From: Promethearchaeota archaeon
GTDB lineage: Archaea > Asgardarchaeota > Lokiarchaeia > Sigyniarchaeales > SOKP01
Reading direction: 5' to 3'
DNA: 17,211 bases
Assembly (NCBI GenBank): GCA_016840085.1
Contig: JAEOTA010000026.1
Span: 1 to 17,211, forward strand
Made by a program: the position numbers and the translations under genes. Below the pieces are notes generated by a model. It was not told where the DNA came from, ran no database searches, and saw nothing but the letters and a program-made list of their open reading frames with translations. Positions 1-16,683 of the stretch are shown piece by piece; positions within the stretch are counted from its first letter, which is position 1; each line of letters begins with the position of its first letter.

Positions 1-16
1 CATAATTAAGAAGGAA

Positions 17-757
17 TTGTTAGAGGAAATCTTTGAAGAATTAAAATTGGAAGAGAAAGAATTAGTTAATGAAATTAGTTCGATGATTTCTAAAAAAACT
101 CCTGAAAAGCAAATAATTAAGCATTCAACTACTACACCCCCCAAATCACAGACAATAAAAGCAGAGGAAAAAAATACTAATGAAGATAAAATAGAAAGAG
201 AAGTATATATTTCGGTTAAAACAATTCTAAAAGTAGCAAGTCATGCCCTTAAATATGCGAATTCTAAAATTCCTAAACAAAATTGGGTAGAAGTAATAGG
301 ATTACTCGCAGGTAAAGTAGATAATAAAAAGGGCATCTTACATATTGAGGATTACTATCCTATGGGTCATGGAACAGCTGTTTATGCTGAAATAAAAGAT
401 TATAGAAACTATGCCAGAGCTTTCCGAGATATTAAAAAGCAAAAGTTATTTATCTGTGGTTGGGCACATAGCCATCCTTCTTACGGATGTTTTATGTCTA
501 ATGAAGATATTGGCACTCAAACAAGATACCAAAAACTTTGGAACAAAGCTGTTGCCCTTGTTATCGATCCATACCTTATTGATGGAACTTCAGCAGGCTT
601 TGAAATTTATCGTGCAGATTTAACCACAAAAACTTGGTATCCTTTGGTTTATGGCATTAAAGGGTCATTAGACATTCGCATGCTACCAGAAATACTAAAT
701 TTTATGAATCCGATAATTGAAGGGAAAGCAGTTTATCTCGAATATGATGAAAATTGA
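17..757 (+). CDS. JAMM/MPN+ metallo-isopeptidase (Rpn11/CSN5-like deubiquitinase); the frame is open back to position 2, so the 5' end may be incomplete
   Basis: Complete MPN+ signature: EVIGLLAG (catalytic Glu), GWAHSHPSYGCFMSNEDIGTQ (H-x-H-x7-S-x2-D) and AVALVIDP, resembling Rpn11/CSN5 WYHSHPG(F/Y)GCWLS.xD..TQ. The N-terminal ~60 aa are charged and low complexity. Confidence 0.9.
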   Translation: MLEEIFEELKLEEKELVNEISSMISKKTPEKQIIKHSTTTPPKSQTIKAEEKNTNEDKIEREVYISVKTILKVASHALKYANSKIPKQNWVEVIGLLAGKVDNKKGILHIEDYYPMGHGTAVYAEIKDYRNYARAFRDIKKQKLFICGWAHSHPSYGCFMSNEDIGTQTRYQKLWNKAVALVIDPYLIDGTSAGFEIYRADLTTKTWYPLVYGIKGSLDIRMLPEILNFMNPIIEGKAVYLEYDEN

Positions 758-1935
758 AACAGATGAATTTTGGTGATTTTAAAACTGTGGTTAAAATTAA
801 ATCTGTGGCAATTGTTCTGGGGATATTTTTATTAATAGGCATAATACATGGTATTATTGCAGATTCGTTCAATGTGTTTGTAAGTTGGTTATTAATCGGA
901 ATCTGGTTAATCTATTCTTTTAAAGTTTTGAAAAATATTAAACAATATCGAGAATTTAATTCCCCTCATAATACTGCTTTTTTCTCTATCGGTCCTGTTT
1001 TTGTTGGAATTTTTTATTCTATTTGGGGTAACTTTACAGGTTTATTAGGAGAAAATCTTCTAGAAGGTTCAAACTTATATTTAAGTTGGTGGAGTATATT
1101 ATTTGGATTTCCTTATTTAGCGTATGGTTCTTATTCTTTATATCGGTGTTTCAAAAAATATAATGTAATATATTTCGGAACAAAAGCAATAAACGCACGT
1201 ACAATCGGTTATATACTGGCTTTAGTAGTCATTTTTTATATAATTTTTTATTGGATAATATTTTATGCTGTTATTGATTTTTATGATTCTATTATAATCC
1301 CTGTTCATTTTTACGTAGATCTTAATCTTTTACTCTTACTTATTAGTACAATTTTAATTTTTATTGTTTCTGGGTTATTCGGTACACAAAGAAGATTACC
1401 CACATTAACAAGAGATTATATCACAAGACGTACAAATAGATTGAATCATTTAACTTCTCCCCAGAGAACATCAAGCCCTAGAAGACAAAACGTAAGCACA
1501 AGTAGAACAACCAGATCATCTAGAATTACTCCCATTTCTCAAAGAAGATCAACTCAAACGAGAACTAAAACAACCTCTCGAACTGTGAGTAGGAAGACAA
1601 CAGCAAAACCTACTATAATTCCCCAAAGGAGTATAAGTTCTAGAGATTTTAGCAAATACAAACCAAAAGCAGGTCTTCTTTCAGTAGAGGATTTTAAATG
1701 CATTTTTTGTTTTAAATTACCTAAATTACCTGAAGATAATGGTAGAGGAATAATTTTATGCCCAAAATGTAGGTATCCCGCTCATGCAGATGAATTTAAA
1801 GATTGGATGCAAAGTTCAAATCTATGCTCAAGATGTAATGCGATAATTCCATCAAGCTATAGAAGAAATCCTAAGATAATCAGTGTAAAAAACTATAGTA
1901 TTATCTACAGGAATTTTCTAAAGAAAAATAAATAA
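754..1935 (+). CDS. Polytopic (~6 TM) membrane protein with Ser/Thr/Arg-rich linker and C-terminal RING-like zinc finger; putative membrane E3 ligase
   Basis: Six hydrophobic segments in aa ~18-210, a low-complexity S/T/R stretch, then C-x2-C-x16-C-x2-C-x4-H-x2-E-x3-W-x6-C-x2-C (nt 1699-1836). The TTG start overlaps the upstream TGA; there is an alternative ATG at 763. Confidence 0.7.
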   Translation: MKQMNFGDFKTVVKIKSVAIVLGIFLLIGIIHGIIADSFNVFVSWLLIGIWLIYSFKVLKNIKQYREFNSPHNTAFFSIGPVFVGIFYSIWGNFTGLLGENLLEGSNLYLSWWSILFGFPYLAYGSYSLYRCFKKYNVIYFGTKAINARTIGYILALVVIFYIIFYWIIFYAVIDFYDSIIIPVHFYVDLNLLLLLISTILIFIVSGLFGTQRRLPTLTRDYITRRTNRLNHLTSPQRTSSPRRQNVSTSRTTRSSRITPISQRRSTQTRTKTTSRTVSRKTTAKPTIIPQRSISSRDFSKYKPKAGLLSVEDFKCIFCFKLPKLPEDNGRGIILCPKCRYPAHADEFKDWMQSSNLCSRCNAIIPSSYRRNPKIISVKNYSIIYRNFLKKNK

Positions 1936-1949
1936 ATTTATTACAGAAA

Positions 1950-2903
1950 TTAAAATTTAATTCTATTTTTTAATTCTCCAATCGTGGTTTTTAATTCAGA
2001 ATACACATTGTGGTTATGAATACTTTCCATACTCAAGACTTTAAAAACGACTTTGAAATGTTCTTCTAAGTTAGGAAATCTCCTATTTATAAAATTTCTC
2101 GCCATTTCTCTTATAACATCTTCTGCAAATAACGGTTTCAAGTGAGCACTTCTGACAAGCTTAGCTTCGTCAGGTCTCTTTAAAACAGATTGTATTTTTC
2201 CACTCATGCTATCTTCAATTATATCAATTATATCTAAAACATCAATCTTATGATTATTTAGATCTTTAATTTGAACCATTATTGTGCCTATTGAACGTTG
2301 ATTATGGGAGCTAAAAGGTAATATATTAAGAAGTTTCTTAACCGTATCGTCAGAAATCTTAAGATCTTGTCTATTTTTAATGACACTTTCAGCATATTCT
2401 TGACTCATTTCTTTAGCACAAGGACAAACCGTCATACCAACCGCACTTGCTCCGATATAATAATTAAAATCGATTTCTCCAGATATGCTCTTTTTCACTT
2501 TTACTAAAGAACTGATATCATATGCCTTCTGAATAGTTCGTTGTTGATCATCTTTAGCTTGGACAATAATTTTGCCTTCAAGTTTCACATTTACCTTTTC
2601 TGTATATGGATGTCTTTCTAACAATTTTCTTGCTATTCTATCTCCAACCACCTCTACTGAGGGAGTAGGCTTGAATATTACTTCATTAATTATTTCTTCT
2701 ATAGTTTCACTTGTTCGAGACATATGAATCCCTCTTTTGTAACTAGGCAATGAAATTAAAGCTGAAATCTTTGGATAAAAAGAATATTTTTTATTTTCTT
2801 GGATTATTTCTACTTTTTTTTCAACTCCAACAATTCCAACTTTATCTATCGGAATATCAATAGAGGAACCTGAATCTTGTAAATCCTTTTTAAATTCGTG
2901 AAT
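1950..2903 (-). CDS. mptA: GTP cyclohydrolase MptA (FolE2 family); start extended from the ORF-track 2750 to ATT 2903 (or ATA 2906)
   Basis: Motifs RGIHMSR, GMTVCPCA, HNQRS, LKRPDE, P.FAEDVIR and ESIH.HN. The frame upstream of 2750 reads IHEFKKDLQDSGSSIDIPIDKVGIVGV..., the conserved FolE2/MptA N-terminus. GGTGG lies 6 nt before the ATT. Confidence 0.9.
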   Translation of the reverse strand: MHEFKKDLQDSGSSIDIPIDKVGIVGVEKKVEIIQENKKYSFYPKISALISLPSYKRGIHMSRTSETIEEIINEVIFKPTPSVEVVGDRIARKLLERHPYTEKVNVKLEGKIIVQAKDDQQRTIQKAYDISSLVKVKKSISGEIDFNYYIGASAVGMTVCPCAKEMSQEYAESVIKNRQDLKISDDTVKKLLNILPFSSHNQRSIGTIMVQIKDLNNHKIDVLDIIDIIEDSMSGKIQSVLKRPDEAKLVRSAHLKPLFAEDVIREMARNFINRRFPNLEEHFKVVFKVLSMESIHNHNVYSELKTTIGELKNRIKF

Positions 2904-2952
2904 TATTAACCACCAGTGTTAAAAACGTATTTTTATATATTCTATTCTTCAA

Positions 2953-2988
2953 AAGGATTAGATATAATATAAGGATTAGATATAATAT
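2953..2988. repeat. Perfect 18-bp tandem direct repeat (AAGGATTAGATATAATAT x2) in a divergent promoter region
   Basis: 2953-2970 is identical to 2971-2988. Confidence 0.9.
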
Positions 2989-2989
2989 A

Positions 2990-2997
2990 TTATAAAA
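2990..2997 (+). promoter_or_regulatory. Candidate archaeal TATA box for a leaderless amidohydrolase-arfC-cofG-cofH transcript
   Basis: TTATAAAA ends 25 nt before ATG 3023, and no SD-like motif precedes that ATG. The AT-rich background weakens the call. Confidence 0.4.
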
Positions 2998-3022
2998 TAT
3001 ATTTTACATTGCTTAAGAATTA

Positions 3023-4192
3023 ATGGCAAATAAATACTTATTTAGTAAATATGGTTTAATTGGAGAAAACTTGGATTTAAAACAAAATATTAATTTAGAA
3101 ATTGATCAAAGTGGAAAAATTTTAAATCTCTCTTATGATGATATAGATAAAAATTTGGAAATTTCACCAAATCATCAGATACAGTTAATGATTCCTGGTT
3201 TTATTAACTCACATATACATATTGGAGATAATTTTGCTAAAGAAATGGGTTTTAATAAAGAGTTAGCAGAGGTCGTTGCCCCTCCATTCGGTTTTAAACA
3301 TAAGTTATTAAGACAAACCTCTGAAGATATAAAAATCAAAGGAATGCAAAATGCTGTTTTAGAAATGCTTTCAAATGGTATTACGTTTTTTATTGATTTT
3401 AGAGAGGAAGGCGTAGATGGAGTAATTCTTCTAAAAAGGGCGCTTAATAATGCTCCTATTAATTTCTTAATTCTAGGACGATTTATGGATGAAAGTGAAA
3501 TAGATTCTATTTTTGATTTAGCTGATGGAGTTGGATTATCTAGCTATAAACAAATTACTTCAACAAATAAACAATTTGTGATATTAGCTAAACAAAATTT
3601 TGATAAAATTATTGCTTGTCACTGTGCGGAATATATTCGCAATGATGATTTAATAAAGGAAATGTTTAATGATAATTTTATTGATGTGGTCATTCATGGA
3701 ACAAAATTTGTCAAAAAAGATTTGGAAAATATAATTAAAAATGGTAAATCTCTTGTTTTATGTCCTCGTTGTAATGGGTATTTTGGAGTGGGTTTTCCCC
3801 CTATTAATGAAATTTTAAAATTGAAAATTCCGGTGTCATTAGGAACAGATAATCTAATGGTAAATAATACTGATTTATTTGAAGAAATGCGATATTTTTA
3901 TCGTATTTCAAGAGTTTTATGCAATTATAATAAAGAACTTCGAATTTCCTCTAAAGATTTATTAAAAATGGTAACAATAAATGCCGCTAAGAATTTTAAT
4001 CTAGAAAAAGAGTTTGGTTCAATTTCAAAGAGTAAATTTGCTGATTTTTTTTTAATTAACCTTAGCGATCCAAATCTATTTTTTTCTAACTTGGACTACA
4101 ATAATATATATAATTTAATTACTCAAAGAACTAAATCAGAAAATATAACTAAGACTTATATTAAAGGAGAGGTGGTATATGAAAGAAATTAA
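3023..4192 (+). CDS. Metal-dependent amidohydrolase (cytosine/guanine deaminase-related TIM barrel)
   Basis: PGFINSHIHIGD (HxH), HCAE, IHG, LCPRCN, VSLGTDN, TINAAK and GSI...K.ADF motifs. Confidence 0.9.
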   Translation: MANKYLFSKYGLIGENLDLKQNINLEIDQSGKILNLSYDDIDKNLEISPNHQIQLMIPGFINSHIHIGDNFAKEMGFNKELAEVVAPPFGFKHKLLRQTSEDIKIKGMQNAVLEMLSNGITFFIDFREEGVDGVILLKRALNNAPINFLILGRFMDESEIDSIFDLADGVGLSSYKQITSTNKQFVILAKQNFDKIIACHCAEYIRNDDLIKEMFNDNFIDVVIHGTKFVKKDLENIIKNGKSLVLCPRCNGYFGVGFPPINEILKLKIPVSLGTDNLMVNNTDLFEEMRYFYRISRVLCNYNKELRISSKDLLKMVTINAAKNFNLEKEFGSISKSKFADFFLINLSDPNLFFSNLDYNNIYNLITQRTKSENITKTYIKGEVVYERN

Positions 4193-4847
4193 TATACCAT
4201 ATATTATTTTAAGCGCCGCTATGACTATAGATGGTAAAATTGCCACTAAAAAAGGTGATTCAGAATTATCAAATAAAGCTGACTGGAAAGAAGTTCACAA
4301 ATTACGAACTGAAGTCGATGCTATAATGGTAGGAAAAGGCACAATTTTAAAAGACAATCCAAAACTGCACATTAAATATTATAATCATAGAGGATATTAT
4401 AGAATTGTTTTAGACAGCCACCTAACGATTCCTTTAGACTCTAATGTCATTTCTTTTCGCCAAGAAATTTATCCTACAATAATTTGTACGACTGAAAATG
4501 TTCCGTTGAATAAATTAAAAAAGTATGAAGATAAAGGTGTTAAGATCATTCAAGCAGGAGATGGTAAGCGTGTTAATCTAATAAAGACCTTAACAATATT
4601 AAAAGACTTTGGAATAAATTCTATACTCCTTGAAGGGGGTGGTAATTTGAACTGGAGTTTTATAGAATATAATTTAATTGATGAAATAAGGTTGACTATA
4701 GCACCTTGGATTGTAGGAGGAAAGGAAGCAACAAGCCTTGTAGAAGGAATAGGGTTTGAAAAGATAAGCACTGCACCTAAATTTGAGCTTTTTGATGTAA
4801 AAGTTAGAATTTATTATATAACTTTAAGATATAAAAGGAAGCAGTGA
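4179..4847 (+). CDS. arfC: 2,5-diamino-6-(ribosylamino)-4(3H)-pyrimidinone 5'-phosphate reductase (stand-alone RibD C-terminal domain, archaeal type)
   Basis: AMTIDGKIAT, VHKLRTEVDAIMVGKGTILKDNPKL, ILLEGGGNLNWSF and IAPWIVGG; no deaminase domain; SD-like GGAGAGGTGG just upstream. Confidence 0.88.
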   Translation: MKEINIPYIILSAAMTIDGKIATKKGDSELSNKADWKEVHKLRTEVDAIMVGKGTILKDNPKLHIKYYNHRGYYRIVLDSHLTIPLDSNVISFRQEIYPTIICTTENVPLNKLKKYEDKGVKIIQAGDGKRVNLIKTLTILKDFGINSILLEGGGNLNWSFIEYNLIDEIRLTIAPWIVGGKEATSLVEGIGFEKISTAPKFELFDVKVRIYYITLRYKRKQ

Positions 4848-5959
4848 TGAGGGTAAATAATATCAAGCAGTTAAAAAACTTAACCATAAAGAAAATAAAT
4901 AAAAAGGTTAAAGATATAAAAGCTCAATTATCCGAGGAAGAACGTAATATAATTACTTATTCAAGAAATTTTACACTTTCACTTTCAAATTATTGTATTA
5001 ATCAATGTGGATATTGTTTTTATAATTATAAAATTCCAAAGATACAGGGTGAAGGAAATGTTATTTTGCTTAGTAGTGAGCAGATGACAGCACTAATTCA
5101 AAAAGGCTTAGATTACAATTGTAAAGAAGTACTATTAATGTCTGGAGAACGTCCTGATAAGTTCTTAGAAGTTAAATCAGAATTAGAAAATAGAAATTAT
5201 AGTGATTTTATTGAATTTGTCAAAGATATTTGCACATCTTTGTTAGATTTCAATTTATTGCCCCATACTAATATTGGATTACTCAATTATGATGATATGA
5301 AGGAATTAAAAAATTATAATGCCAGTATGGGATTAATGTTAGAAAGCACTAATATGAAACTTTTTGAAAAAGGCAGTGTACATGAAAATTCACCCAGTAA
5401 ATTACCTACAAAAAGAATAGAACATATCAATAATGCAGGAAAATTAAAAATTCCTTTCACTACTGGTTTGTTGTTAGGTATCGGTGAATCGATTGAAGAT
5501 AGAATCAAAGATTTATATTTAATCAAAGATATTCATAAAAAATATGGTCATATCCAAGAAGTAATACTCCAAAATTTTGTAAATAAAGAAGGAGTTCCAT
5601 ACCAACCTAAAAATCCAATATCAATAGATGAAATTCTTAGGACTATAGGCATCGCGAAAATAATTTTTGAGAACGAGATTCCAGTTCAAGTTCCGCCAAA
5701 CCTAGTAAATGGTTTTGAAAAAGTATTTATAGATATGGGGATTGATGATTTCGGTGGAATATCACCATTCACCCTAGATTATATAAATCCTGAAAAGAAA
5801 TGGCCCCAAATTGATAAATTAAAGAATATTTGTGAAAATATGGGTTATACACTTAGAGAAAGGCTTCCAATTTATGAAAAATTTATAAACAAAAATGAGT
5901 TTCTTCCAGAAAATATTAAAAAAACAATAGATAATATTAATTTAAATGGAAATAACTGA
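4844..5959 (+). CDS. cofG: FO synthase subunit CofG (radical SAM)
   Basis: ITYSRN, CINQCGYC, LPHTNIG, NASMGLMLE, IPFTTGLLLGIGE, GHIQEVILQNF, QVPPNL, DDFGGISP.T.DYINPE..WP and LRERLPIY. Confidence 0.95.
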   Translation: MMRVNNIKQLKNLTIKKINKKVKDIKAQLSEEERNIITYSRNFTLSLSNYCINQCGYCFYNYKIPKIQGEGNVILLSSEQMTALIQKGLDYNCKEVLLMSGERPDKFLEVKSELENRNYSDFIEFVKDICTSLLDFNLLPHTNIGLLNYDDMKELKNYNASMGLMLESTNMKLFEKGSVHENSPSKLPTKRIEHINNAGKLKIPFTTGLLLGIGESIEDRIKDLYLIKDIHKKYGHIQEVILQNFVNKEGVPYQPKNPISIDEILRTIGIAKIIFENEIPVQVPPNLVNGFEKVFIDMGIDDFGGISPFTLDYINPEKKWPQIDKLKNICENMGYTLRERLPIYEKFINKNEFLPENIKKTIDNINLNGNN

Positions 5960-7076
5960 AGTTTTTAACCATATCAACAATGATATAAAAGTTATTTTAA
6001 AGAAAGCATTGAATTCTGAGGAAATTAGTGCTGAAGAAGCATTAAAATTATTTAAAGTAACTGGTAAGGAATTTTTTGCCCTTCAGAATGTAGCAGATAA
6101 ATTATGTTTCCTAAAAAAAGAAAATATTGTCACATTTATTATTAATCGGAATATAAATTTTACAAATATTTGCTTTCAAAAATGTAAGTTTTGTTCTTTT
6201 AGTGTTCCAAAAGATCATAGGGATGCTTTTTTACTGACTATCGAAGACATAAGAGAAAAGGTTATAGAAGCAAAAAGTTTCGGGTGTACTGAAGTGTGCA
6301 TTCAAGGAGGAATAAATCCAGAATTGAAGTTTGATTCTTATTTGGAAATTCTCAAAACTGTTAAAGAGATTGATTCTAAGATACATACACATGCCTTTTC
6401 TCCTCAAGAAATATTTTTTATGTCAAAATTATTTGATAATTCTATTGAAAATACTTTAAAAGAACTCAAAAAGGCAGGATTGGATTCAATTCCAGGCACA
6501 GCTGCTGAAATATTAGTTGATGAGATTAGAAAGATAATTTGTCCAAATAAAGTTTCAACTTCTCAATGGATAGATATTATTACTACGGCGCATAATTTAG
6601 GTATTCCAACAACCTCTACCATTATGTATGGACATATAGAAAAACTTTCTGATAGAGTCAACCATTTAGAGGTATTAAGAAGAATACAAAAGGACACGAA
6701 TGGTTTCACAGAATTTGTACCCTTACCTTTTGTTAAAGCAAATCCCATTTTATCAAATCTAAAAAAGTTTCCATTAAAACCAAGTTATGGAATGTCAGAT
6801 TTAAAATTATTTTGTGTTGCAAGGTTATTTTTAAATAACTATATAGATAATATTCAATGCAGTTGGGTTAAGCTAGGTCCCTCTTTTGCTCAAGTTTCTC
6901 TAAATTATGGGGTTAATGATTTCTCAGGTACATTAATGGAAGAAAATATTTCTAAAAGTGCGGGTGCAGAATTTGGTGAATATTTATCACCTGAAAAAAT
7001 GATAGAAATTATTAAAACCGCTGGAAAACACCCTGCTCAGCGAGATACGCTTTATAATATTATAAAATATTACTAA
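5946..7076 (+). CDS. cofH: FO synthase subunit CofH (radical SAM)
   Basis: NRNINFTNICFQKCKFC, EVCIQGG, HAFSPQE, PGTAAEILVD, TIMYGHIE, GFTEFVPLPF, NIQCSWVKLG and GTLMEENISKSAG; overlaps cofG. Confidence 0.95.
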   Translation: MEITEVFNHINNDIKVILKKALNSEEISAEEALKLFKVTGKEFFALQNVADKLCFLKKENIVTFIINRNINFTNICFQKCKFCSFSVPKDHRDAFLLTIEDIREKVIEAKSFGCTEVCIQGGINPELKFDSYLEILKTVKEIDSKIHTHAFSPQEIFFMSKLFDNSIENTLKELKKAGLDSIPGTAAEILVDEIRKIICPNKVSTSQWIDIITTAHNLGIPTTSTIMYGHIEKLSDRVNHLEVLRRIQKDTNGFTEFVPLPFVKANPILSNLKKFPLKPSYGMSDLKLFCVARLFLNNYIDNIQCSWVKLGPSFAQVSLNYGVNDFSGTLMEENISKSAGAEFGEYLSPEKMIEIIKTAGKHPAQRDTLYNIIKYY

Positions 7077-7307: not shown

Positions 7308-9179
7308 TTAACTTCCGCGAGTTTGTAAAAAATCTAATATATAACGTTGGGCTATTAGATCTGAACTGACCTTACCTAAAACTTTTCCTTCTTCCACTAC
7401 TGGCATAGCTGAAATTTGAAACTGCTCTAATTCACGTACAATATCTAACACAGTTAAATTTGGAGAGGCTGTAATAACATTTTTAGTCATTATTTTATCA
7501 AGTTTAACATTAATTATTCCCTCAGCAGTAGCTTTAGTAATATCCCAATCAGTAACAACTCCTACTAATTTACCTTCAGAAAGTACAGCAATTATGCCAC
7601 TGTTTTCATTGATTATTAATGCCGCAGCTTCTTGAATATTTTTATTAACATCAATAGTAGGTATTGGAATCATAATATCTTGTGCTGTCCTTTCACTCTC
7701 TTTAGAAGTAAGGCGTAGGAGACTGATTCGTTCAGCTGCTACGCATGGTAACATATCTGGGTTTGTAGCTAATAAATCCACCAATTCAATCATATTATGA
7801 TGTATCACATCTTCTCTATATTCTTCACCTGCATTTAAGCGTTTTTTAGAAAGTTCAGCAAATTCATTAGAATTGTCTTTTAACCATTTTTCTACAGCAT
7901 CCTGATTTCCAAGCATTTCTTCAGGAATTTGCAAATTATCTGGAGTCTTAATTATATGTTCCTGAGCAGCAAAAATTACACCACCAGAATTTACTAAGTA
8001 ATCATTTGCGATCATCACTTTCTTATCTCGATATACAATTTGTTCCATTCGAGTACGGGCAGCTTTTCTATTTGGATCAGGAGAGTAGGTATTAGCACCT
8101 TCCACGATTACACTCCATTTTCCCATTCTTTCTACTAACATCGATGGGCTTTCTGAGGGATATACTCCAAGATAATTAAATATTGGAGCAGCAGGTATAA
8201 AACAAAATGCATTTTCAAGAAGTAAATTATTAGCATTTGTAGAAAATTTAGTAGGATGTTTATAACCCTTTTTCATGATTTTATTTTTAAAATAAATATT
8301 GGTAACTAGCTTTACTTTTTTCCATAGTTTATAAAGCTCATCAACAGGAAGACTTGATTTATTATATAAATAACCTTCTAAATCGCTAATACCAATTACT
8401 TTAGCTTCAGGAATTCTTTCTTTTAATATACGCGCTGCATGGGCACCAACTGCTCCAAAACCCTGAATTAGAACTGTAAGATCTTTAGATTCTGGTATTT
8501 CTAAATTAGCGAATTGCGGCAATACTCTCATTCTGGGTAAAATTTCTAGTAAGGTTTGCAGAGCAATAACCACACCCCCACCAGCAGCACCGAGTTCATC
8601 TATTCGATTTCCTCCCATTTCTAAAGGCTTAGATACGGCACAATCTATACCATTTTCTATAGCGATAATCTTCATATCAGCATCGTTAGTTCCAACATCA
8701 GGTCCTGGAATATAAATATCTTTATATCGATAAATTAACCTAGCAAAACACCGAACTATTTCTTTATGCTTCTCAACAGTTATTTCTCTCTCAGCTACAA
8801 TTCCTGCTTTACCCCCCCCATAAGGTAAATTTGCTGCTGCATTTTTTAGAGTCATACCTCTAGCTAAGTTATAAATATCTGAAGGTGTTATATCTGGTAA
8901 CATTCTAATTCCTCCCATGGATGGTTTACCCATAGATAAATTATCTACTACAAGATACCCCCCAATTTCTATTGGTGATTCTTCATTCCACATACAAACA
9001 ACAAGATCAGGACCAAGTTTATCAACCACAATCCCAATACGTGATAATAGAACTTCATCTGTGTGACTAAATTCTAAATAACAATTTCCTTTATTTTTTT
9101 TAAGTCGAGTTTTAAGAATGGCTTCTGAAAGATGCTTTTGAAGAAATATTTCCATTTTTCTCGGTATCATAATTATCAA
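7308..9179 (-). CDS. Glu/Leu/Phe/Val-family amino-acid dehydrogenase fused to a C-terminal CBS pair (ATG 9170 is an alternative start)
   Basis: GGIRM, MTLKNAAANLPYGGGKAGI, GPDVGT, QGFGAVG, VEGAN and DYLVNSGGV; CBS repeats (AQDIM...GKLVGVVTDWDI; IMTKNVIT...AMPVVEEGKVLGKVSSDLI). Confidence 0.9.
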   Translation of the reverse strand: MIIMIPRKMEIFLQKHLSEAILKTRLKKNKGNCYLEFSHTDEVLLSRIGIVVDKLGPDLVVCMWNEESPIEIGGYLVVDNLSMGKPSMGGIRMLPDITPSDIYNLARGMTLKNAAANLPYGGGKAGIVAEREITVEKHKEIVRCFARLIYRYKDIYIPGPDVGTNDADMKIIAIENGIDCAVSKPLEMGGNRIDELGAAGGGVVIALQTLLEILPRMRVLPQFANLEIPESKDLTVLIQGFGAVGAHAARILKERIPEAKVIGISDLEGYLYNKSSLPVDELYKLWKKVKLVTNIYFKNKIMKKGYKHPTKFSTNANNLLLENAFCFIPAAPIFNYLGVYPSESPSMLVERMGKWSVIVEGANTYSPDPNRKAARTRMEQIVYRDKKVMIANDYLVNSGGVIFAAQEHIIKTPDNLQIPEEMLGNQDAVEKWLKDNSNEFAELSKKRLNAGEEYREDVIHHNMIELVDLLATNPDMLPCVAAERISLLRLTSKESERTAQDIMIPIPTIDVNKNIQEAAALIINENSGIIAVLSEGKLVGVVTDWDITKATAEGIINVKLDKIMTKNVITASPNLTVLDIVRELEQFQISAMPVVEEGKVLGKVSSDLIAQRYILDFLQTRGS

Positions 9180-14319: not shown

Positions 14320-16683
14320 TTAATAAAAATTTTCATAATCTTTGTATTGGTGCTCCCTCATACTTAATTTAGTCTTATATTTCCATACTGTGGATCTGAA
14401 ATCTTCATCAAGTACGCGAATTCTAAGCTTCTTGATAGATTCTCCAGACCAATTCTCCAATTCATCCAAATTGTTAATTTTTCTAGTTCTGACAGCTTCC
14501 CGTATTATTTCTGCGTTTCTAAAGCCCAATCGATACAATTCTTCAAGTCTCTCTTCAAGCTTTTTTACTGTAGCAGGACGATCTTTCCATCGTTCTAAAG
14601 TAGCTTGAAGTCCTGAAATCATATTATGTGAAATATAACCTCGATTTTCAATTACTCTTTTAGGAACAAATGCATGGTTTTTACGTTCATCATTCTCTGG
14701 GTTATAATCCATATGATGATAGCCTAATGTCTCTCCTCTTTTTAAAAGCTCAATTAGGTCAGTACCATCGAATGATGAAAAACCTCTCATTTCGCAGAAA
14801 TTGTTAAATCTTGCCTTAATTGACCTAAAATTTTCTCCGTATAATGATTCAGTTAATTTCTTTTTTTGTCTAGCCCTTCTTAATGAATCAAATTTTACTA
14901 ATAGCCTTTCTTGGGTATATTTTTCAAGACTTTTTTTAGCTTCGTGTCTAGAATTGTTAGGAATATATTTTTCAATAAAATTATTAAATCTACTAATAAT
15001 TTTATTAAACGTTTTTCTTTGAACGAATTTAGTATTTCTTTTTAATAAATAAAGAATAACACTTGGTTTAAGATTTTCTTTACTTAACTCATAAATCTTT
15101 AGATTCTTCACAAAACTAATTGGATCTAGGGCTGATAATTCAAACATTGATAAGATCAATTTTCCCTCTAAATAAGAAGGATTCTCTTTAATAATTTCTC
15201 TTAATTGGCTTTTGAATATTTCTCTATCATAGTTATGTTGAAATGGAAATAAAATTAGTTCATTTAAAAATTTCTGAAAATCACGAATTGTTTTTGAGAA
15301 ATAAGTTGGATTTAAATTAAAATCTACCAACTCTTCCTGAATTTTAGATTGAGTTAGATTTGTAATATTTTCATTTATTAAGCTAGAGAAAAATATTAAT
15401 GTAGCAGCTAAATATTTTGGATGCTTAATTTGAAATGTATCTATATTAAAATCATTTTTACTTGCCTGATTATATAGATTAACGCATTTCTCTTTTATAC
15501 TCTCAAATGGTAATTCTAATATTTCTATTCCTTCATCTACATATTCAATTAATTTATCATAATAAACATTATTATCAATTACACCATCTGGAACAGTAGG
15601 TTCATAATCTGAAATATTTATTTTATTAAAATAAATTTTATAAAGAAATTTTATTAAAACACTCAAATTCCCAAGATTGATTATTATTCTGCTTTCAGTA
15701 TTTAGTTTATTAATGAAATCAGTTTGAGTTAAATTCACAAAAGAGTTAATGATATAGAATAATAATGCTGAAGCGAAATATTTCGGATTTTTTGAATTTT
15801 TAGGTATATCCGAATACTTTATTTTCTGAATGATATTATTATAGTGGTAGATAATCATTTCTCTAAATTTTTCAAAGTTTTTTAAATGAAAAGTATTGAG
15901 AAATATATTAAGAAAATATTTAAAATCTACAAAATATTTTCCTTTTAAATCTGAATAAGCATAGTCCTTATAAGGAATCTCATAATAATCTCTATAAGTT
16001 TTTTTAAATTTGCTTAAAAACCATAATTTTCTATATCGTTTGAATGTACTCTCACTTAAATTTTGAGAATCAAGATTAATTGACGGTTTTCGACTAACAT
16101 AATTTATCCACATATTAAATGTGATAGGTATATTGTTTGAAATCTCTTCCAAATTTTCGTTTAAAAAATCCGAGATATAATATTGAATAGTTCCGTTTAT
16201 CCTACATTTCCTCTGAAACCACTTAACGTTGTCATTAACATCTAAATTATTAACTACTTCATCCATAAAGACGTGTCTTTCTTTTAGTTTAAATTCGTTA
16301 TTAATATTTATAAAGGTCTTGGTTTGCTCACTTTTTGATTTTTTTCGCGAATATTGATTAATAAATCCCGTCTTAATTTCAGTAAAATTGATATCATGAT
16401 CAACAGAAAATTCCAAACAATCTTTATCTTTATCGTAAAGAAACTCATTGGATATTTTTCTCTTTAAATACCTATTTAATATTAACTTTTTGACTCCAAT
16501 ATCATAATCCCAACCCCCTTTCACGTAATTCTGTGTATGCTTTTTAAAATCCTCTCCTAATAAAGAAATTAAATCTTTTGTTTGAAGTTTGCTTAAAACA
16601 GATATAAGCTTAGTTTTATCTTCTTCACTAAGCTTATCTTTTCGAATGATTTTTATTATTGTTGCTTTTTCTTTTATGGTCAA
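14320..16683 (-). CDS. Large hypothetical protein with two TFB/cyclin-fold-like repeats and a C-terminal HNH-like motif
   Basis: 787-aa ORF; internal repeat KNPKYFASALLFY...NLTQTDF / KHPKYLAATLIFF...NLTQSKI; C-terminal YHHMDYNPENDERKNHAFV...SH. The ORF is secure; the domain calls are by eye. Confidence 0.6.
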   Translation of the reverse strand: MTIKEKATIIKIIRKDKLSEEDKTKLISVLSKLQTKDLISLLGEDFKKHTQNYVKGGWDYDIGVKKLILNRYLKRKISNEFLYDKDKDCLEFSVDHDINFTEIKTGFINQYSRKKSKSEQTKTFININNEFKLKERHVFMDEVVNNLDVNDNVKWFQRKCRINGTIQYYISDFLNENLEEISNNIPITFNMWINYVSRKPSINLDSQNLSESTFKRYRKLWFLSKFKKTYRDYYEIPYKDYAYSDLKGKYFVDFKYFLNIFLNTFHLKNFEKFREMIIYHYNNIIQKIKYSDIPKNSKNPKYFASALLFYIINSFVNLTQTDFINKLNTESRIIINLGNLSVLIKFLYKIYFNKINISDYEPTVPDGVIDNNVYYDKLIEYVDEGIEILELPFESIKEKCVNLYNQASKNDFNIDTFQIKHPKYLAATLIFFSSLINENITNLTQSKIQEELVDFNLNPTYFSKTIRDFQKFLNELILFPFQHNYDREIFKSQLREIIKENPSYLEGKLILSMFELSALDPISFVKNLKIYELSKENLKPSVILYLLKRNTKFVQRKTFNKIISRFNNFIEKYIPNNSRHEAKKSLEKYTQERLLVKFDSLRRARQKKKLTESLYGENFRSIKARFNNFCEMRGFSSFDGTDLIELLKRGETLGYHHMDYNPENDERKNHAFVPKRVIENRGYISHNMISGLQATLERWKDRPATVKKLEERLEELYRLGFRNAEIIREAVRTRKINNLDELENWSGESIKKLRIRVLDEDFRSTVWKYKTKLSMREHQYKDYENFY

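Follow-up and report, generated by a model that had tools for sequence, protein, structure and literature searches.

The window analysed here (17,211 nucleotides, the entire contig C13 of a 4.68-Mb genome in 89 contigs) opens with two adjacent genes that probably encode the membrane-anchored E3 ligase and the cognate protease of a self-contained Ala-Gly ubiquitin-like pathway at the inner face of the membrane. In relatives these two genes close a longer operon. Which genes it holds and in what order, the integrity of the catalytic motifs, the fold of the RING and a predicted membrane topology could be established directly. The reconstituted cascades of Caldiarchaeum and Helarchaeota suggest by analogy that the operon proteins carry out conjugation. 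In such a pathway the E1 would activate a modifier ending in Ala-Gly, and the E2 would take it over on its catalytic cysteine. The cytoplasmic RING, attached by a long flexible linker to an anchor of six membrane helices, would bind the E2 and promote transfer of the modifier onto lysines of proteins that sit in the membrane or close to it. The JAMM protease would trim precursors of the modifier with residues past the glycine, and would also remove the tag from its targets. The positions of the features are given in Table 1.

Table 1. Features of the operon and its surroundings; positions refer to the window unless another locus is named.
Feature	Position	Strand	Basis or remark
Rpn11-like JAMM/MPN+ metalloprotease, its 5' end cut off where the contig begins	2..757	+	N-terminal acidic helix and linker, then MPN domain; about 277 aa when complete
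JAMM catalytic residues: Glu 290-292, His-Ser-His 467-475, Ser 497-499, Asp 506-508	290..508	+	sequence, alignment
GGTGA ribosome-binding motif, 10 nt before GTG 787	772..776	+	conserved in same-genus relatives
Probable E3 ligase: membrane RING protein of 382 aa	787..1935	+	probable start GTG 787
Six-helix membrane domain, predicted N-in/C-in; helix 4 is followed by a cytoplasmic loop with a short beta-hairpin	787..1386	+	model, loop charges
Disordered basic linker, 19 Arg, 19 Thr and 15 Ser in 90 residues	1387..1656	+	model, composition
C4-H-E-C2 finger of RING fold, with Ile following Cys1, Glu as ligand 6 (1792-1794) and Trp (1804-1806)	1699..1836	+	alignment, fold match
Conserved C-terminal helix with an invariant Tyr, after the RING	1885..1926	+	alignment, model
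Convergent GTP cyclohydrolase gene (FolE2/MptA type)	1950..2825	-	bounds the operon at its 3' end; outside the system
RING-less paralogue, examples	L044 7706-8290, L048 6313-6894, others		beside or near the RING gene

An earlier, sequence-only reading of the window had proposed a two-gene writer/eraser module and remarked that no ubiquitin, E1 or E2 gene accompanies it. This is true of the window, but only because the contig ends there. A public contig that is identical over positions 1-828 extends past base 1, and in the genome itself the operon is broken over two contigs: C67 stops within the gene for the ubiquitin-like modifier (Ubl) and C13 opens within the JAMM gene. On the map of a relative, C67 and C13 lie 2.16 kb apart; the gap would therefore hold the missing E1 and E2 genes of this genome, as deduced from that close relative. 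The pairing of the two genes proved general, with the JAMM gene directly upstream of the RING gene in all 28 related loci that have upstream DNA. The module itself turned out to be a five-gene operon, as E2, E1 and modifier are encoded directly upstream in relatives, and the presence of these cognate components strengthens the writer/eraser role. The order is Ubl–E1–E2–JAMM–membrane RING in Lokiarchaeia and Helarchaeota; in Heimdallarchaeaceae it is E2-JAMM-RING with Ubl-E1 nearby, and in Hodarchaeales-type genomes the five genes are clustered, with JAMM immediately before the RING gene. The Lokiarchaeum cluster corresponding to this operon was reportedly described by Spang in 2015. Homologues of the membrane RING protein are labelled Promethearchaeota/Lokiarchaeota, and matching reads originate from marine sediment. 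In distant relatives other genes take the place of the convergent GTP cyclohydrolase gene. A scan for promoters and terminators of the bacterial type gave signals at chance level.

Among 251 Asgard genomes, the E2 of the operon was found in 88 and the membrane domain in 94, and every one of the 88 E2 carriers has the membrane domain; these co-occurrence counts include kin and linked genes and are hence non-independent. Several whole Asgard families and two single-contig Lokiarchaeia genomes were without a match to the operon, so the system is widespread but dispensable. Bacterial Bil/Bub operons are a precedent for antiviral conjugation, and this patchy distribution, together with the extra modifier copies that relatives have scattered in variable regions, would suit a similar antiviral system in which the membrane protein senses infection. 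We consider this extremely improbable, since throughout the genus the operon is present as a single copy at a fixed site among housekeeping genes, and its E2 evolves very slowly. Upstream of the operon (G000:C67 6949-10758; L031 5555-9497), four genes are conserved in the genus, encoding a K-x-P coiled-coil protein, a second Ala-Gly modifier, an HTH regulator, and a membrane protein whose C-terminal ubiquitin-like domain lacks a terminal glycine. A protein of about 585 residues adjoins the operon in two loci (L035 2213-3961, L034 9694-11448), with a weak, below cut-off Cdc48_N match and a vWA domain; its C-terminus is a domain resembling the modifier.

The modifier of the operon has the C-terminus P-x-S-T-A-G, with Ala-Gly in 134 modifiers and Gly-Gly in none. 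A short tail follows the Ala-Gly in 21 of the 134, so that the precursor would need trimming. All 25 members compared match Pfam ubiquitin and none Ufm1; the latter identity, prompted by the single glycine, was rejected, as no Ufm1 profile match was present in these 25 members or in the genome. This genome encodes a separate Gly-Gly ubiquitin precursor (G000:C25 5898-6155) and another E1/E2 pair besides that of the operon (C78 52470-56842). The sequences are best read as making the tag of the operon an Ala-Gly modifier distinct from the Gly-Gly ubiquitin. In the operons of relatives, the GxGxxG motif and catalytic Cys of the E1 are invariant, as are the HPN motif and the Cys of the E2; the E1 is nearer UBA1, SAE2 and UBA3 (E about 1e-37) than UBA5 (1e-14). 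Two further stand-alone copies of the Ala-Gly modifier are found at G000:C18 1793-2125 and 16345-16673 (the second frameshifted), and a 550-residue protein at C78 189544-191193 combines E2/UEV-like matches with a C-terminal RING.

The acidic N-terminal tail of the modifier holds one or two K-T-P motifs, and a conserved protein neighbouring the operon contains many K-[T/I/V]-P motifs. Across such K-x-P neighbours, Lys stands two residues before 174 of 398 prolines (21% expected from composition) and Arg before 11; genome-wide, K-x-P is barely enriched, with 202 occurrences versus about 180 in shuffles. As Thr swaps with Ile or Val while Lys and Pro stay constant, the motifs are tentatively read as possible acceptor lysines, not phosphorylation sites. 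They could thus give a regulatory, SUMO-like tag with chain formation instead of a degradation signal, a speculative idea to which we lend limited credence.

The frame at the start of the window matches Pfam JAB with 50 bits (cut-off 22.5). Its closest solved relatives are the Caldiarchaeum Rpn11-like protease (CsRpn11, the best solved match) and then yeast and human Rpn11. The metal motif E...H-x-H-x7-S-x2-D is present, and the catalytic Glu, the H-S-H, the Ser and the Asp are invariant in 25 aligned orthologues. The gene had been called intact, which applies to the catalytic motif but not to the gene: no stop interrupts the frame as far as base 2, and with 277 residues in the nearest intact orthologue some 27 codons must be lacking at the contig start, which means that TTG 17 is not the start. 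Judging from the reconstituted Caldiarchaeum and Helarchaeota systems, the protease would cleave after the C-terminal glycine of the modifier. Its acidic N-terminal helix (window 2-90) has some likeness to a VASP-type tetramerisation helix, but this identity was rejected, as Pfam gave no hit at this N-terminus. The full JAMM motif is present in six open reading frames of this genome, this one among them, and three JAMM-motif genes are located inside 5 kb at G000:C49 83319-88254.

The membrane RING gene probably starts at GTG 787. The protein has 366 homologues. Homologues begin at this position, and in at least 13 same-genus relatives an in-frame stop lies between the stop of the JAMM gene and the start of the RING gene. 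Together with the conserved GGTGA motif, this makes it probable that the 4-nt TTGA overlap of the two genes, noted earlier, is not real but an artefact of choosing the first TTG. Translational coupling by overlap was rejected, with the start placed at the GTG that follows the conserved GGTGA. A single contig from an RNA library of a relative (n=1), about 94% alike, covers positions 628-1200, including the JAMM/RING junction; it may be DNA and is given no weight here.

AlphaFold shows six transmembrane helices for the membrane domain modelled alone (pLDDT 91), in agreement with the approximately six previously counted. The mean number of Lys and Arg alternates from loop to loop (1.7/0.2/3.2/0.6/5.2/0.2/4.8 in 26 diverse sequences), which predicts an N-in/C-in arrangement with the RING on the cytoplasmic side; the even number of helices had already suggested that the RING would be on the side of the N-terminus. 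The proposed low-complexity linker is also borne out, as roughly 90 disordered residues rich in Arg, Thr and Ser, followed by a folded C-terminal domain in the AlphaFold model. The helix after the RING is possibly a dimer or packing helix.

By sequence, no relative of the membrane domain was found in Pfam or among solved structures. Foldseek gave no match at E 0.001, and the Atlas yielded no usable feature match and, in a shape search, only a TM of 0.42 to a Promethearchaeota cluster; blank searches of this kind do not establish a new fold. Searching 1.84 billion proteins with a profile gave 95 matches, all with the same architecture, fragments of it or a RING-less paralogue, none longer than 465 residues; the few named proteins among the 95 are from Asgard archaea. 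This six-helix paralogue, related to the membrane domain with an HHalign probability of 97.5%, is encoded in Heimdallarchaeia either just after the RING gene or close to it, which suggests a heterodimer of the two proteins in that group.

The protein had been likened to ERAD ligases, and with Hrd1 and gp78 it does share the layout of a multi-pass membrane domain followed by a C-terminal cytoplasmic RING; beyond layout, nothing was found to connect it to Hrd1, gp78 or MARCH/Doa10. The role proposed alongside, in quality control or sorting of membrane proteins, is conjectural. If it belonged to a proto-ERAD, its membrane domain would be a distant homologue of that of Hrd1 and gp78 and would pass misfolded membrane proteins to Cdc48 and the proteasome. 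Weak structural matches from three structure searches, to HRD1 (9uav_B, Z 6.3, rmsd 5.2, 112 aligned; 8ket_B, Z 5.7, rmsd 4.5, 112 aligned) and to yeast 9z0e_C (Z 6.2, rmsd 6.3, 157 aligned), point in this direction, as does the Cdc48_N-like/vWA/Ubl fusion that adjoins the operon in two genomes (Cdc48_N below the cut-off). However, unrelated soluble bundles of helices score as high as HRD1 (Z 5.7-6.3), identities are 3-6%, and the alignment registers conflict, helices 1-4 of the model aligning with 139-266 of human HRD1 and the whole domain with 11-220 of the yeast protein. The finger is not a RING-H2 (C3H2C3), the 95 profile matches are confined to the protein's own architecture, its fragments and its paralogue, and neither this search nor Pfam or solved structures revealed sequence homology of the membrane domain to Hrd1. 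A proto-ERAD function is therefore distinctly improbable. That the membrane domain is remote kin of Hrd1, and the operon an archaeal forerunner of ERAD-type membrane-protein ubiquitylation with its own Ala-Gly modifier, also seems quite unlikely. Unlike Hrd1 and gp78, the protein would work with a modifier of its own; the MARCH/Doa10 proteins share the C4-H-x-C2 ligand spacing in a membrane protein, but their RING-CH is N-terminal, whereas here the RING is C-terminal and ligand 6 is Glu.

Both structure and profile matches support a RING/U-box fold for the finger, described before as RING-like. The top nine structural matches are all RING or U-box domains (best Z 7.8, rmsd 4.3, 75 aligned), the profile matches the RING of RNF24 with E 1.2e-6, and in Pfam searches with 28 members Prok-RING_1 was found in 13 and zf-RING_2 in 12, at E up to 0.1. 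A non-RING zinc ribbon was rejected, the weak matches to IFT144-type fingers being outscored by RING matches. The spacing C-x2-C-x16-C-x2-C-x4-H-x2-E-x3-W-x6-C-x2-C provides seven Cys/His zinc ligands, not eight; the sixth ligand position is taken by Glu in 192 of the 193 homologues (72/73 distant and 120/120 near ones). The E2-contacting Ile after the first Cys and the helix Trp are conserved or invariant. Of the 73 distant homologues, 13 have the Pro of loop 2, with Ser mostly in its place, and none has a linchpin Arg following the last Cys, where Asn or Asp predominates. The complex predicted between the RING and the E2 of a close relative scored 0.58 versus 0.04 for the best control, which speaks weakly for binding, since E2-RING is a textbook pair that the model may have learnt. 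Of 80 solved and 110 mismatched pairs, 58 and 2, respectively, attained the mark; only 7 solved pairs but both mismatches did so at 0.60 or below, a range in which passes are often wrong. All contacts (100%) agree between runs, and the partner pLDDT is at least 89.

The unusual ligand 6, the absence of the linchpin Arg and the frequent lack of the loop-2 Pro would also be compatible with a RING that only anchors or scaffolds the E2 at the membrane, or that has lost ligase activity; the E2 would then direct conjugation through a consensus, as in Ubc9/SUMO, and the membrane domain would be a sensor. Conservation is much stronger in the E2 than in the membrane protein (mean column identity 73% versus 32%), and the recurrent K-[TIV]-P resembles a consensus read by an E2. 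This seems unlikely, given that the Ile and Trp that touch the E2 in active RINGs are retained here and that U-box and SP-RING ligases function despite missing zinc ligands. We favour an active membrane-anchored E3, the ligase activity being expected by analogy with the reconstituted Caldiarchaeum and Helarchaeota enzymes. Soluble stand-alone copies of the Glu-type RING also exist (L036 6493-6903, L062 6634-7299); one forms a tandem with the membrane gene, the other adjoins a modifier gene.

The ubiquitin operon of Caldiarchaeum subterraneum, with Rpn11, Ub, E2, E1 and a small RING protein, has been reconstituted (PMC5654768, PMC6043591). The same kinds of components, modifier, E1, E2, RING and Rpn11-like JAMM, are clustered in the relatives considered here, and are split by the assembly gap in this genome. 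Unlike in Caldiarchaeum, the RING is C4-H-E-C2 and is fused to six membrane helices instead of being small and soluble, and the modifier ends in Ala-Gly, not Gly-Gly, and has an acidic N-terminal tail. UFM1 is likewise a single-glycine modifier acting at a membrane, as is predicted here, but the present system has a ubiquitin-family modifier, an E1 that is not of the UBA5 type (from sequence profiles only), a canonical HPN E2, a RING E3 and a JAMM protease.

The ligase might instead mark membrane cargo for the Asgard ESCRT machinery. Asgard UEV proteins bind ubiquitin (bioRxiv 2023.07.25.550441, PMC9192718), and a membrane ligase would supply the upstream step that such a pathway lacks. On the other hand, no ESCRT gene was recognised from the gene content of the loci inspected, and the Ub and ESCRT regions of Lokiarchaeota are separate (PMC9192718). 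The ESCRT-linked E1/E2/RING cascade of Helarchaeota uses a ubiquitin with a di-glycine end (bioRxiv 10.1101/2023.07.25.550441), in contrast to the Ala-Gly of this operon, and a Gly-Gly ubiquitin is separately encoded on C25 of the present genome. A role in ESCRT sorting is thus very improbable, and we retain the membrane-anchored E3 with its own Ala-Gly modifier as the preferred reading.

PMC9192718 catalogues Asgard Ub/E1/E2/DUB clusters in the same organisms as here and gives the E2 HeimAB125_09840. The modifier of AB_125 has the locus tag HeimAB125_09790, and this distance of five tags would fit the gene order of the operon; the cluster is thus probably already among those catalogued. In that survey E3s were defined by IPR018611, and its accessible part mentions no membrane RING. 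Our literature search, some subscription papers aside, found no description of a membrane Asgard ligase, a Glu-type finger or an Ala-Gly modifier. The entry IPR018611 is, we assume, the UFL1 family. The archaeal E3s described in accessible papers are of the small RING kind. A multi-pass RING protein encoded alongside a dedicated modifier, E1, E2 and protease, found from Lokiarchaeia to Heimdallarchaeia, is a complete five-protein set that could be rebuilt in vitro. Asgard archaea are close relatives of the ancestor of eukaryotes, and a probable membrane-built ligase closing an Asgard tagging operon implies that ubiquitin-style tagging at the membrane, with no link to Hrd1 shown, may be older than eukaryotes.

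The rest of the window is occupied by other genes. A 787-residue open reading frame on the reverse strand (14320-16683, -) has no NCBIfam match and no significant Pfam match. At 7308-9179 (-), a dehydrogenase of the Glu/Leu/Phe/Val type is fused to C-terminal CBS domains. A cofactor cluster (1950-7076) comprises the FolE2/MptA-type GTP cyclohydrolase, an amidohydrolase, a RibD-like reductase, and CofG and CofH for synthesis of the F420 precursor.
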